This document shows, piece after piece, positions 28,121 through 33,488 of a DNA stretch of 64,000 nucleotides (within the stretch, counting starts at the first letter, position 1; every line of letters starts with the position of its first letter). The translations under genes were made by a program, and so were the position numbers. The stretch lies in the NCBI GenBank assembly GCA_964392775.1, contig CAYMRD010000006.1, positions 61,901 through 125,900 on the forward strand, written 5' to 3'. The DNA is from an uncultured Bifidobacteriaceae bacterium (GTDB taxonomy: Bacteria; Bacteroidota; Bacteroidia; UKL13-3). The notes under the pieces were generated by a model. That model was not told the DNA's origin and did no database searches. It saw only the letters and a program-made list of their open reading frames with translations.

Positions 28121-28157
28121 AAAATCCCATTCCGCTCTCGTTTCTGAGTCGGCATTT
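28121..28157. repeat. Degenerate copy A of the rplT-terminator repeat
   Basis: aaaatccc-att-ccgctctcgtttc-tgagtcggcattt shares the A-run/tccc start and the 13-nt core ccgctctcgtttc with copies B-D. Confidence 0.6.
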
Positions 28158-28205
28158 ATGTATACGAGTTTTAGGGATTACGCCTTAATTTTTATAGTTT
28201 CGGGG

Positions 28206-29132
28206 ATGAGGAAAAGAATAGGCTCTTTTGCCAGCATAATTCCAAATTCACTATGTAAGTTTGATGCCTTCGAAAAGGTAAGTGTTTTCTACCATGCGGT
28301 AAACAATCATCCGCAAGATTTCAACAAGGGACTTTACGATACAAAATCCGAAAAAGAGTTTGCTCAGGGTGTAGACTATTTGCTGAATCAGTTTGGCGAT
28401 AAACTTGAATTAAGTTTTGATGATGGGTTGAGTTGTTGTTACGATATCATTGCACCCATTCTGAAAGAAAAGGGAGTACAAGCAATCTTCTTTTTGAACA
28501 ATGCTTTTATTGACAATAAAGAATTGTTTTACCGGTACAAAGCTGCGTTGATTGTGAATGCATGCCGGATGGATCCTTCTATTTATAAGCTGCTGAATAT
28601 TGAATTGGGTTCCGACCCTGTTTCTGTTGTAATGAGAGTGGGATATAAACAGCGAGCTAAGCTTGATGAAATTGCAAACCGGATTGGAATTGATTTTGAC
28701 GAATACCTGAGAGAGCAGAAGCCTTATATGAATGATGCACAAGTAAGGTCACTGATTAAGGACGGGTTTTTAATAGGTGCTCATAGCGTTGATCACCCTC
28801 CATTTTACGAACTCGATTTGAAAGAACAGCTTTGGCAGGTAGAAACCAGCGTAAATACGTTAATCCAGCAGTATCAATTATCTTATCGTTATTTTTCTTT
28901 CCCCTTTACAGACTGGAATTGCAGTATGGAATTGTTTAAAATCATCAGTGAACGCAATCTGCTCGACAGGTCGTGGGGGTGTGCGGGAATGAAACTGGAA
29001 AATTTTACCTTCCATAAGCAACGGTTGGCATTGGATGTTAACAATCAAACGGCCGAAGAAACAATCAAGTCGGAATGGATTTTATATCAACTAAAACGTA
29101 TCATTGGCAAACATAAAATCACCAGAAATTGA
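28206..29132 (+). CDS. Polysaccharide deacetylase (NodB/CE4) family protein
   Basis: LSFDDG, IGAHSVDHP and FSFPF motifs; start uncertain (28158 or 28206). Confidence 0.85.
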   Translation: MRKRIGSFASIIPNSLCKFDAFEKVSVFYHAVNNHPQDFNKGLYDTKSEKEFAQGVDYLLNQFGDKLELSFDDGLSCCYDIIAPILKEKGVQAIFFLNNAFIDNKELFYRYKAALIVNACRMDPSIYKLLNIELGSDPVSVVMRVGYKQRAKLDEIANRIGIDFDEYLREQKPYMNDAQVRSLIKDGFLIGAHSVDHPPFYELDLKEQLWQVETSVNTLIQQYQLSYRYFSFPFTDWNCSMELFKIISERNLLDRSWGCAGMKLENFTFHKQRLALDVNNQTAEETIKSEWILYQLKRIIGKHKITRN

Positions 29133-30223
29133 TAGCAATTGAAACATATACTGCTGAAGCTTTGGTGGCATTTACACAAAGTGAAACCTATCAGCAAATG
29201 CCCGTTATTCCAATCTCCGCCATCAGGGCATCTTCGCTGTTGAATTCACCCAAAACACTCCCAACGGATATTGTAATGGTATGTGCTTTTCACAATGATA
29301 CATTGGTAGGCTATTTGGGTTTGTTACCTGATGAGTGTGTGATTCAACATAACCCGATACGATTTGGCTGGCTGTCGGGAATGTGGGTGAGTGAGCATCA
29401 CCGCGGTAAAGGCATTGCTTCGTCACTTATTAATACAATGCTTACCGTTTGGAACGATAATGTGTTAACCACCAATCAATCTCCTGTTGCAGCTTTGGTT
29501 TTTCAGAAACATAAAAAATTTGTGTGCAAGGAAAATACCGGTAAACGGTTCTACTTACGTTCAAGGTTGGCTGGTTTGGTTCCGCAAAAAATTGCATGGA
29601 CAAAAAGACTGAGCTGGGCATTGCACCCGCTCGATTTTATATTGAATAGTTTCTTTACGGCTTATCGTAGCATAGGTTTTAAAAAGGTTGAAAATTATAA
29701 AGTATTCAATACGATTGATGATACACTCGCAGCTTTTCTCAACCAACAACAGCTAAATAATGTTGGAACAAGGCGTGTGGTGGATTTTGAATGGATGATG
29801 AATTATCCGTGGGTAAAGCAAAGCGCGGTTCCTGATTCGTTTGCTGATAAGTATGAGTTTACCATTTCAACACCTGATTACCGAAACGAGTTTGTTGTTT
29901 GTGTTGATGTGCATGAACGAATTATTGCTGCGGCATTGGTGATGTTAAAAAAAGGGGAGCTTAAAGTTTCCTATATATGGGCAAACAATTCGGCCTTGGA
30001 TACACTTGGGAAAGCCGTTTTTCAATACGCACTAAACCATTCCGTTTACGAGATAAGTGTTTTTAATCTCCAACACCAAAGTTTGATAGCTCCATTTGCA
30101 AAATGGTGTCTCCATCAAAGAAACCTGTCACGGCATTATTATCTTACAGCTCCAATTCAAAAAGTATTTGAACAAAGTACCGCTCAATTTTTTGATGGTG
30201 ATGGCGATTGTAGTTTTGCATAA
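29129..30223 (+). CDS. GNAT-family N-acetyltransferase
   Basis: WLSGMWVSEHHRGKGIASSL acetyl-CoA motif; 4-nt overlap with the deacetylase. Confidence 0.8.
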   Translation: MIAIETYTAEALVAFTQSETYQQMPVIPISAIRASSLLNSPKTLPTDIVMVCAFHNDTLVGYLGLLPDECVIQHNPIRFGWLSGMWVSEHHRGKGIASSLINTMLTVWNDNVLTTNQSPVAALVFQKHKKFVCKENTGKRFYLRSRLAGLVPQKIAWTKRLSWALHPLDFILNSFFTAYRSIGFKKVENYKVFNTIDDTLAAFLNQQQLNNVGTRRVVDFEWMMNYPWVKQSAVPDSFADKYEFTISTPDYRNEFVVCVDVHERIIAAALVMLKKGELKVSYIWANNSALDTLGKAVFQYALNHSVYEISVFNLQHQSLIAPFAKWCLHQRNLSRHYYLTAPIQKVFEQSTAQFFDGDGDCSFA

Positions 30224-30234
30224 AGTCGGGTCAT

Positions 30235-30268
30235 AAAAAATCCCGCTCTCGTTTCCGGGGCGGGATTT
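30235..30268. terminator. Bidirectional terminator hairpin, repeat copy B
   Basis: aaaaaatcccgctctcgtttccggggcgggattt, identical to 31297-31330 and 33385-33418. Confidence 0.9.
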
Positions 30269-31532: not shown

Positions 31533-32534
31533 ATGAAAGAAATAGAAATAGTAGATATTGCTTTAGAAGCTCTTGAAAAGAATACCGGAATAAGGTGTAA
31601 ATGGAGGGTTATGGAAAAAAAAAGAGTAGATAAGAAGCTTTGTTTAGAGGTTGATGATCATCAATATGATGTTTATATGGAAGTGGTTAAGGAGCTTAGG
31701 AATCATCAAATACCTTTAATGTTAGAAAGAACAATAGAGAACAAACCTCTGATTGTGGTTGCTGCTCACCTGATACCTAAAGTAAAGGAAGAGCTGCGGG
31801 CTTTAAACATTGGATATCTGGAAGGTAATGGAAATATTTATTTGAAATTGGATGGACTTGTATTGTGGATTGAAGGGAACAAGCCATATAAACAAGATGG
31901 AGTAAAGACTAACAGAGCTTTTACCAAAACAGGGTTAAAAGTCGTGTTTCAGTTTTTACTTGATCAACAGATGGTGAACATGCCATATAGAGAAATTGCT
32001 AGTGTGACTGATGTTGGGTTGGGGAATATAAATTATGTTATACATGGTTTGAAAGAAATGGGCTACTTAATTGAAATCAATGCTAGAGAATATCAATTAA
32101 TAAATAGAAGAGAGCTATTGGACAAATGGATAACAACTTATACTGAAAAGTTAAAACCAACACTATTGCTAGGCAGGTTTCGCTTCTTAAAGGAAGAAGA
32201 TTTTATGAATTGGAAGGCTATTATGCTTCCCCACAATAAAACATGGTGGGGAGGAGAACCTGCAGGAGATATATTAACCAATTACTTAAAACCAGAAGAG
32301 TTAACTTTATACACAGAGCAAACCAGAAGCGATCTTATTAAACAAATGAGATTAATTCCTGATGAGAATGGGACCGTGAAGATTTATAAGAAGTTTTGGA
32401 ATTATCAGGATGTGTATGATAACATAACTCCACCGTTATTAGTATATGCGGATTTAGTAACAACTAATGATCGCAGATGTTTAGAAACGGCAAAAAGAAT
32501 TTATGATGAGCTCATACAAAATAAACTACAATAA
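31533..32534 (+). CDS. abiEi: Type IV toxin-antitoxin antitoxin, AbiEi-like
   Basis: RAFTKTGLKVVF, winged helix YREIASVTDVGLGNINYVIHGLKEMGY, WWGGEPAG and PPLLVYADL...D.RC.ETA; start could be 31527 or 31533. Confidence 0.8.
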   Translation: MKEIEIVDIALEALEKNTGIRCKWRVMEKKRVDKKLCLEVDDHQYDVYMEVVKELRNHQIPLMLERTIENKPLIVVAAHLIPKVKEELRALNIGYLEGNGNIYLKLDGLVLWIEGNKPYKQDGVKTNRAFTKTGLKVVFQFLLDQQMVNMPYREIASVTDVGLGNINYVIHGLKEMGYLIEINAREYQLINRRELLDKWITTYTEKLKPTLLLGRFRFLKEEDFMNWKAIMLPHNKTWWGGEPAGDILTNYLKPEELTLYTEQTRSDLIKQMRLIPDENGTVKIYKKFWNYQDVYDNITPPLLVYADLVTTNDRRCLETAKRIYDELIQNKLQ

Positions 32535-33363
32535 AATTCGTCAGTTACCGGAGATAAAGGAGATGCTTTCTGCATTAGAAAGAGGGCTAAATCGCTTTAG
32601 TATAGACTATTATTTGGTAGGTGCTGTAGCAAGAGACGTTTGGATGACAGGAATTAATGGTATTGCTCCAAGAAGAACAACTGGAGATATTGATTTTGCT
32701 GTATTAATAAATGATAAGGGTGTTTATGATGCCCTTAAGAATTATTTAATTGAGGAAGAATGTTTTGCTGCTTATAAAGCGAATCCTTATGTATTGATTT
32801 GGGAAGGCCGATATGAAGTAGATTTATTACCATTTGGAGCGATTGAGGATGAAAATGGTTATGTCATTGCAGAAGGAACTGGTTTAACTAATATAAGCCT
32901 ACAGGGTTTTTATGAAATTTATGAGGAAGGACTTCCGGAGATTGAGTTGGAAGGAAATCACCGGTTCAAGTTTTGTACACTTCCGGGAATTGTGACATTG
33001 AAGCTAATTGCTTGGGATGACAGACCAGAGATAAGAAGAGATGATGTGAAAGATATTAGTGACATACTGAATCACTTCTTTGATATGTATGATGAAAAAA
33101 TATGGGAAGGTCATAACGACTTATTTGAAGGTGATAATGTTGATTTAAAGCATGTGGCAGCTCGTGTAATGGGCAGAGAAATGCGCAAAATTGCAGACCG
33201 AAGCAGAAAACTGTTCGACAGGCTAAATGCGATACTGGATGCGAATACTTCAGATATGCGAAATAGTAGAATGGCTAATATAATGGTAGAATATTTTGAC
33301 AATACCGTTGAGGATAATGTGATACTGTTGAGTCAGGTGAAATTAGGACTAAATGGAAATTAA
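32503..33363 (+). CDS. abiEii: Nucleotidyltransferase toxin, AbiEii/AbiGii-like
   Basis: YYLVGAVARD, RTTGDIDFAV, VDLLPFG and LKLIAWDDR...DVKDI; overlaps the antitoxin 3' end. Confidence 0.82.
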   Translation: MMSSYKINYNKIRQLPEIKEMLSALERGLNRFSIDYYLVGAVARDVWMTGINGIAPRRTTGDIDFAVLINDKGVYDALKNYLIEEECFAAYKANPYVLIWEGRYEVDLLPFGAIEDENGYVIAEGTGLTNISLQGFYEIYEEGLPEIELEGNHRFKFCTLPGIVTLKLIAWDDRPEIRRDDVKDISDILNHFFDMYDEKIWEGHNDLFEGDNVDLKHVAARVMGREMRKIADRSRKLFDRLNAILDANTSDMRNSRMANIMVEYFDNTVEDNVILLSQVKLGLNGN

Positions 33364-33384
33364 TACTTCTGCAAAGGTTTAATA

Positions 33385-33418
33385 AAAAAATCCCGCTCTC
33401 GTTTCCGGGGCGGGATTT
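33385..33418 (-). terminator. rplT operon terminator, repeat copy D
   Basis: 70 nt downstream of the rplT stop; hairpin with GAAA loop and U-tract on the minus strand, and a T-tract on the plus strand as well. Confidence 0.9.
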
Positions 33419-33488
33419 TTCAATCGTACAATCGTGGTGAATAATTTATTAAAGTTCGAACAAACTGAAACAGGTTCAGTTGAACAAA

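Follow-up and report, generated by a model that had tools for sequence, protein, structure and literature searches.

Tandem accretion of integrative elements and the formation of cis-mobilizable elements (CIMEs) have been described beside the ribosomal-protein genes rplL, rpmE, rpmG and rpsI (PMC5704250). In the 64-kb stretch of DNA analyzed here (positions 61,901 to 125,900 of contig CAYMRD010000006.1, assembly GCA_964392775.1, from an uncultured bacterium of the Bacteroidota; hereafter the window), the spacer between dprA and rplT, the gene for ribosomal protein L20, holds five genes in three modules, with a copy of one hairpin repeat, which we call T, at every module boundary. The closest known analogue is an accretion array of integrase-less elements at an attachment (att) site beside a ribosomal-protein gene. 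As in CIME arrays, the direct repeats come from a native site beside such a gene, unrelated inserts stand in tandem with no integrase inside, the cargo includes a module of the toxin-antitoxin type, and one of the duplicated segments includes the 3' end of a neighboring gene. The direct repeats of CIMEs derive from a native attB that is single-copy in insert-free genomes, and T is likewise single in the two sister species described below. Unlike CIME arrays, the inserts are only 1-2 kb long, carry no decayed integration or transfer genes and lie between duplicated segments of variable length; the repeated site is a terminator hairpin downstream of the gene and not the 3' end of its coding sequence; and no cognate integrase or attP-bearing element was found in the 64-kb window, where open reading frames (ORFs) of at least 80 aa were scanned with Pfam, or in the collections that were searched.

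Integrons offer a second point of comparison. Their cassettes are mostly promoterless and co-oriented, each with a distinct attC, and attC sites are imperfect palindromes of 55-141 nt with R''-L''/L'-R' boxes and RYYYAAC...GTTRRRY cores; integrons are rare in Bacteroidota. Like integron arrays and clusters of attC sites lacking integron-integrases (CALINs), the locus is made of small modules, each followed by a palindromic repeat, with toxin-antitoxin-like cargo and no integrase nearby. Unlike them, T is a near-perfect 38-nt hairpin without R/L boxes or GTTRRRY cores (its only GTT precedes TCC), its copies are identical to one another and to the host terminator, the modules point both ways, and the same cargo is found elsewhere without the repeat. 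Neither attC architecture, nor co-orientation, nor a distinct attC for each module was seen, and there was no IntI among the scanned ORFs. The first-pass annotation of this DNA had likened the locus to an integron-like array, a likeness that fails on the absence of attC features, on the mixed orientations and on the operator-like region that the AbiE module has of its own.

The 34-mer AAAAAATCCCGCTCTCGTTTCCGGGGCGGGATTT, the core of T, has exact matches at 30235-30268, 31297-31330 and 33385-33418, all on the + strand; a scan of the 64 kb gave no further match at up to three mismatches (expectation 0.00 from 100 shuffles), and a looser stem-only pattern returned the same three sites across the window and no more. 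This agrees with the first-pass annotation, which had listed these three copies, a decayed one at 28121 (copy A' in Table 1) and no other. The alignment of the copies defines a repeat unit of 37-41 nt, longer than the 34-mer. Copies C and D (aligned over 31294-31331 and 33382-33419) are identical at 38/38 nt (ATAAAAAAATCCCGC...GGGATTTT), and at 40/41 nt over a longer span; relative to these, copy B has an A-run one A shorter and a shorter T-run. All copies are in direct orientation. Copies B, C and D are predicted to form hairpins on both strands, with energies of -17 to -21 kcal/mol and z scores of -3.1 to -5.2. On the rplT strand of copy D (-20.1 kcal/mol, z -4.7) U7 comes after the stem, and on the opposite strand of T U3-5 does. 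With a GC-rich stem-loop, a U-run and a position just past the last gene of the operon, T has the features of an intrinsic bidirectional terminator, and we take it to be the native, bidirectional terminator of rplT, as predicted from its sequence and fold. Copies B and D may now act as bidirectional terminators for convergent gene pairs, while copy C, which does lie between divergent genes as had been noted, is proposed to be a by-product with no evident terminator role. Copy A' also lies between divergent genes; it has kept the T-run beside the dprA start and lost the hairpin, folding no better than shuffled sequence (z ~0), which bears out the earlier remark that the copy farthest from rplT is the most decayed. 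A partial match to T at 39601 falls within a DnaJ-type coding sequence and was set aside as chance, and a search of Rfam with positions 26-37 kb, at E values up to 1, gave no match.

What the locus looked like before the modules arrived is suggested by two sister species. An exact look-up of the L20 protein led to the contig of a related organism (GCA_020047435.1, here L001), which encodes the same rplT protein sequence and whose identity to the window is 90% across thrS-rplT and 74% across dprA. There, rplT is followed by 25 nt, one copy of T with one base different, 38 nt and the dprA start codon, with nothing else between. In the second sister species, represented by L092, L093 and an ENA contig, the dprA protein is 83% identical and the operon shares ~88% nucleotide identity with the window; its one T matches the copy in L001 exactly, and an ABM-domain gene of 109 aa and a small membrane ORF stand between T and dprA. 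Thus the occupancy of the spacer takes three states, namely empty (L001), an ABM gene (L092) and five genes (the window), and the comparison of the dprA-rplT interval across relatives, which had been put forward as a check on the array, finds that occupancy does vary. T has been kept at the same place after rplT, 25-95 nt past the stop codon, in all three species, which supports the reading of the copy at 33385 as the terminator of the rplT operon. The dprA orthologue also stands at the same position in L001 and L092, so that the nearness of dprA, which had been remarked on in connection with DNA uptake, is ancestral synteny common to both sister species, and a role for dprA is not supported. 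In the joint alignment the rplT-side flank of copy D is that of both sisters, and on its dprA side copy A' retains the native sequence seen at the empty site of L001 (ctgaaaac; on the - strand TTTTTTGTTTTCAG...GCCATG). It follows from these two flanks that the 5.3 kb of the window sits within the single terminator of the sister species, and the serial insertion at the terminator with duplication of the site, which the first-pass annotation had inferred, is supported by an empty single-copy site whose two halves bracket the array.

The most parsimonious reading of this alignment is insertion in the lineage of the window, which falls short of proof because a deletion between direct repeats would produce the same empty site. 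The three species are roughly equidistant from one another, and rplT adjoining dprA was not found in the remoter dprA relatives (at most 53% aa identity in GTDB, ~64% in P0145), so that these provide no outgroup with which to polarize insertion against deletion. The distance from the stop codon of rplT to T varies through in-dels among the three species, at 25, ~70 and ~90 nt (L001 4969-4991; window 33420-33488; L092 9301-9388), and in L092 it has an additional small hairpin (atccccgag...ctcggggat). The ABM gene of L092 is bracketed by an imperfect 17-nt direct repeat at 9494-9510 and 9847-9863 (GTTAACCCTTATCACCA and GTTAACCCCTAACATCA), which may be the footprint of its insertion or may be chance.

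Table 1. Copies of T, modules, border genes and supporting assemblies at the rplT-dprA spacer
Feature	Position in window	Strand	Description
dprA	26974-28086	-	Pfam DNA_processg_A (1.7e-72) and DprA_WH; conserved left border; start 33 nt from A'
T copy A'	28119-28157	+	Decayed; 66% identity to reference copy; 5-nt insertion; 3-4 substitutions in right arm
rA	28170-28189	+	20-nt relic, 12-nt spacer after A'; 19/20 identical to rB
Module 1	28185-30224	+	Polysacc_deac_1 deacetylase (28206-29132) and 364-aa GNAT acetyltransferase (29129-30223), by Pfam
T copy B	30233-30268	+	Exact 34-mer; between convergent GNAT and T9SS genes; -19.3 / -17.6 kcal/mol per strand
Module 2	30269-31293	-	Por_Secre_tail protein sorted by the type IX secretion system (T9SS), 30287-31219 (3e-13, TIGR04183), and 77-nt upstream region
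rB	30279-30298		Last three codons and stop codon of the T9SS gene, with the 8 nt that follow
T copy C	31294-31331	+	Exact 34-mer; between divergent genes; -20.0 / -17.1 kcal/mol per strand
Module 3	31332-33381	+	AbiEi_2 (31533-32534) and 286-aa predicted nucleotidyltransferase (32503-33363); own upstream operator-like GTTCACG..CGTG(T/A)AC repeat
T copy D	33382-33420	+	Exact 34-mer; native rplT operon terminator, predicted; rplT-side flank aligns with L001 and L092
rplT (L20)	33489-33833	-	Ribosomal_L20 (2.3e-41); last gene of thrS-infC-rpmI-rplT; conserved right border
L104	30239-31323		Unitig, 1085 nt, exact match; T-T9SS-T; recorded in 5 samples
L089	31302-33411		Unitig, 2110 nt; T-AbiEi-nucleotidyltransferase-T; recorded in 2 samples
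L002-L004			Unitigs; infC/rpmI/rplT into T
L091			11 kb; dprA, A', deacetylase, GNAT, into T

A repeat longer than the k-mer used in assembly could in principle have threaded unrelated segments together, and the Logan unitigs (short-read, k=31, from independent runs and 100% identical to the window) do all end inside T, as expected of a k=31 graph at a 38-nt repeat. Since they break there, they do not settle which of modules 2 and 3 comes first or whether all modules lie on a single molecule, and a mixed population is possible. Such an artifact is nonetheless hardly credible, because the T-to-T unitigs of the T9SS and AbiE modules are identical to the window in independent runs, the path from dprA through A', the deacetylase and GNAT into T is continuous in contigs of 10-20 kb (five on record), ordinary reads span a 38-nt repeat, and any other threading would still leave every module with T at both ends. 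In the independent assemblies, which come from several runs, every junction is reproduced and T stands at both ends of each module.

The spacer between A' and D, ~5.3 kb, has its five genes in the orientations +,+ / - / +,+. GC content is 0.38-0.41 in the deacetylase and GNAT genes, 0.36-0.38 in that of the T9SS protein and 0.31-0.38 in the AbiEi pair, against 0.42-0.49 in the flanking core, and the modules are foreign to the core. The description of the blocks as self-contained holds, and they occur elsewhere in other contexts. The gene content is also as first described, except that the name AbiE-like is firm for one partner of the pair only. The AbiEi_2 match (PF09952, E 7e-31) is above the curated cut-off and identifies the AbiEi antitoxin/regulator domain of AbiE type IV toxin-antitoxin pairs, in which the toxin is an AbiEii nucleotidyltransferase (PF08843/DUF1814); the 286-aa partner had no match in Pfam, NCBIfam, PADLOC or PDB sequences, the AbiEii models of Pfam and PADLOC included. 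This partner has a GDIDF motif, read from its sequence, and its relatives go under the JGI name 'predicted nucleotidyltransferase', one of them, 69% identical, with a precomputed PF08843 hit. An (ATAC)5 microsatellite at 31247-31267, 28-48 nt upstream of the T9SS start codon on the - strand, could make the expression of this gene phase-variable.

The junctions hold some record of the order of events. The relic rA and the segment rB are the only two matches to this sequence in the window, where none is expected, and the score of their local alignment was reached in 0 of 2000 shuffles. Taken as copied from the T9SS gene's 3' end, rA shows that the T9SS gene was already there when the deacetylase and GNAT module came in, by way of the T copy distal to rplT, which in this one respect contradicts the earlier supposition that older cassettes had been pushed farther from rplT. 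The segment duplicated around these two genes (A'/B) would thus comprise T and the T9SS 3' end, ~64-69 nt, and the duplication around the AbiEi pair (C/D) is 38-41 nt and perfect, which suggests that the AbiEi pair was inserted recently. Copies B, C and D have AT before the A-run and G in the stem, where A' and both sisters have C and A, respectively; these shared states could be due to recent common descent, to gene conversion or to chance changes in the decayed copy, and we rejected them as a phylogeny of the copies because they cannot separate descent from the other two. Other comparisons of flanks (R_C/R_D, L_C/L_A, L_D/L_A and others) were not significant, and no terminal inverted repeats or shared end motif of the modules were seen.

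We propose that the spacer separating dprA from the rplT terminator is an insertion hotspot specific to this lineage, whose modules entered by Campbell-type, att-like recombination at T, an account that we favor tentatively and would place a little short of an even chance. In this scheme at least three modules of foreign origin would have come into the locus, each by an event of its own, and the site left duplicated on both sides of each insert would be the native hairpin T, once together with ~30 adjoining bases. Circular DNA would insert through att-like recombination at the dyad-symmetric hairpin, with a recombinase that may have been supplied in trans, be encoded elsewhere or have since been lost. 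The logic would be the one by which integrative elements, and remnants of them without an integrase, accumulate in tandem 3' of ribosomal-protein genes. A circular intermediate, a recombinase and whatever mobility there may be at present we infer, and we favor Campbell-type insertion because a native site recurs as direct repeats, unrelated inserts stand in tandem, a 3' gene end has been duplicated and the cargo is of a type known from conjugative elements. The att sites of integrative elements often include the 3' end of the neighboring gene. Like hotspots between core genes in general, the interval between these syntenic genes differs among species; unlike them, each small insert here is bounded by a copy of one hairpin. 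Such hotspots usually hold elements with recognizable recombinases, or are filled by homologous replacement through the flanking core genes.

Several observations weigh against att-like recombination at T. The scanned ORFs of the window yielded no integrase, transposase, HUH, Cas1-like, Y1_Tnp or RAYT (REP-associated tyrosine transposase) domain, in agreement with the earlier statement that no recombinase or transposase lies there; those with Pfam matches are housekeeping genes only, and ten small ORFs had no match. No element bearing a T-like attP was found in the searched collections. When the exact 25-mer TCCCGCTCTCGTTTCCGGGGCGGGA and a version with five free positions were used as queries, T had no hits in the GTDB species representatives, the JGI metagenomes or IMG/VR, blastn found none in PLSDB, and in INPHARED blastn gave only a chance-level partial match (E 0.3). 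Because the lineage is poorly sampled, this absence is weak evidence, although nothing in these searches ties T to a mobile element. Furthermore, the spacer of L092 gained the ABM gene without duplication of T, and a precise site-specific reaction would leave constant boundaries, unlike the duplicated segments of 38-41 and ~64-69 nt found here. The states that B, C and D share call for gene conversion or a common recent source. Finally, the modules are very compact. Their last stop codons stand 11-21 nt from T, and debris of genes or pseudogenes is absent, which is unlike what would be expected of three decayed islands.

Some of the same observations can be accounted for by a process without any recombinase, in which errors of repair or replication at the hairpin (fork stalling, template switching, illegitimate end joining of incoming DNA) duplicated the hairpin locally, or in which T was first repeated in tandem and foreign DNA then entered the gaps between copies, where transcriptional insulation would let insertions be tolerated. 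The variable length of the duplications, the window's lack of a recombinase and the agreement among B, C and D, which extends to the AT preceding the A-run as it would in recent copies of one another, would all fit, and the L092 spacer, having taken a gene without duplicating T, appears to be a permissive site by itself. A 1.4-kb in-del relative to L092 at 18500-19930, with no border repeat, likewise points to ordinary illegitimate insertion in this lineage. However, that three insertions all ended within 11-21 nt of the left edge of T would be a tight coincidence if they were untargeted, tandem T is seen in neither sister species, and the modules are foreign in composition and not copies of neighboring DNA. 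We consider this explanation, the main rival, rather doubtful.

Improbable, in our judgment, is a miniature form of cassette loading distinct from integrons, in which a trans-acting enzyme of this Bacteroidota lineage would recognize the dyad-symmetric terminator hairpin and insert modules of 1-2 kb with duplication of the whole hairpin, so building arrays of insulated genes, set apart by terminators, beside a ribosomal-protein operon. Quite improbable is an active, dedicated cassette system, with T as its site in the manner of attC or of a CRISPR repeat that is cut at both its sides and then refilled, an enzyme in trans and cassettes that excise and reinsert. The compact, self-contained modules with one T to the right of each, the perfect identity of B, C and D, and copy C with no role in transcription would suit such a system. 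The record of samples, with the AbiE T-to-T unitig in 2 and the T9SS T-to-T unitig in 5, next to five contigs for the dprA-to-GNAT stretch, is a weak hint of presence and absence, namely that the AbiE module may be missing from some populations. Opposed to a dedicated system are the architecture of T, which at 38 nt and with no RYYYAAC/GTTRRRY cores is not that of attC, the mixed orientation of the genes, the lack of T from every searched collection, the single locus of this kind that was seen, and the cargo relatives elsewhere, which when tested were bounded by neither T nor any repeat. Spacer acquisition by CRISPR arrays and casposon integration also duplicate a unit on both sides of an insert, by staggered attack on the two borders of a palindromic repeat, the unit here being a palindromic one of ~35-40 nt, and the likeness is no more than an analogy; unlike these systems, the window has no Cas1-like gene, the modules are 1-2 kb long and lack terminal inverted repeats, and the copies number only four. 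IS200/IS605 elements and palindrome-associated transposable elements (PATEs) have distinct left and right subterminal hairpins and a Y1 HUH TnpA in cis or in trans. Unlike in those, the bounding hairpins here are identical and equal to the host terminator, and neither Y1_Tnp nor RAYT was found in the window, though such an enzyme may act in trans from another part of the genome.

It can also be asked whether T is simply a dispersed palindrome of the repetitive extragenic palindromic (REP) type or the MITE type (a miniature transposable element with inverted repeats), beside which the modules arrived independently. T is short, GC-rich, palindromic and intergenic, like REP elements, and the search covered 64 kb of the source genome. 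Yet there is no T in the other 58.7 kb of the window, T is single in 21 kb of L092 and in L001, all copies have one orientation, and the public collections gave no hits. Within the sequence at hand, the many dispersed copies in both orientations that characterize REP elements, bacterial interspersed mosaic elements (BIMEs) and MITEs were not seen, and an unrelated intergenic repeat family in the window demonstrates that such families are detectable when present. We regard this possibility as very unlikely.

Relatives of the modules provide some idea of where the cargo came from. In L090 the deacetylase and GNAT genes recur with 78% nucleotide identity over exactly 28185-30224 of the window; T is missing there, and the genes on either side are unrelated ones. 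In a distant Bacteroidota genome (L102/L103, 2105-6092) the two genes stand behind a 653-aa glycosyltransferase of family GT2 in one operon, an arrangement suggesting that they usually belong to an exopolysaccharide operon; those of the window would then probably be a detached piece of an exopolysaccharide-modification operon. The nucleotidyltransferase has more than 1000 relatives at ~70% identity. In L098-L101 (~3028-4855) a homologous pair of AbiEi_2 and nucleotidyltransferase genes lies at the edge of an element with relaxase and type IV coupling-protein genes, and is therefore cargo of a conjugative or mobilizable element. In L085 (4749-6894) another homologous pair directly follows tRNA-Arg(acg) with no flanking repeat, and may be a relic of an element of that kind; the operator-like GTTCACG..CGTGAAC repeat upstream of the pair is common to the window and L085, which implies that the module carries its own control region. 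For the T9SS protein, the searched collection contained no relative of at least 90% identity. A search of other genomes for the same cargo bounded by the same repeat had been put forward as a check; in L090, L085, L098 and L102 neither T nor any repeat bounding the cargo was found.

If the hairpin is a true recombination site, the locus would be an instance of very small, integrase-less, site-specific gene accretion in Bacteroidota, in which a host terminator doubles as an attachment site and every new module arrives insulated by a terminator. If no dedicated enzyme is involved, it would still be a clean natural example of a strong hairpin between core genes serving as a landing pad, with a bearing on the spread of small defense and surface-protein genes. 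In either case the evidence comes from one locus in one uncultured lineage.

Some further features of the window may be mentioned. The dprA gene is on record with a start that gives 393 aa, and the call used for the window has a 370-aa start. The in-del at 18500-19930 holds genes for proteins of 144 aa (no Pfam match), 151 aa (HTH_3, of the Cro/C1 type) and 137 aa (no Pfam match), and lies between the genes for an ABC transporter and 2-phosphosulfolactate phosphatase, which adjoin in L092; judged by this comparison it is a second lineage-specific insertion, with no duplicated terminator or border repeat at its ends. The intergenic repeat family unrelated to T has members of ~60-90 nt at 42828-42919, 48508-48566 (inverted) and 22019-22050 (partial), and a 59-nt inverted pair of this family, 86% complementary, brackets the genes for an ABC-F ATPase, tRNA-Pro(ggg) and mfd. 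An ORF at 50176-50619 with no Pfam match contains ~20 tandem copies of a 15-nt unit at 50298-50606, and would thus encode a protein with a pentapeptide-repeat region.

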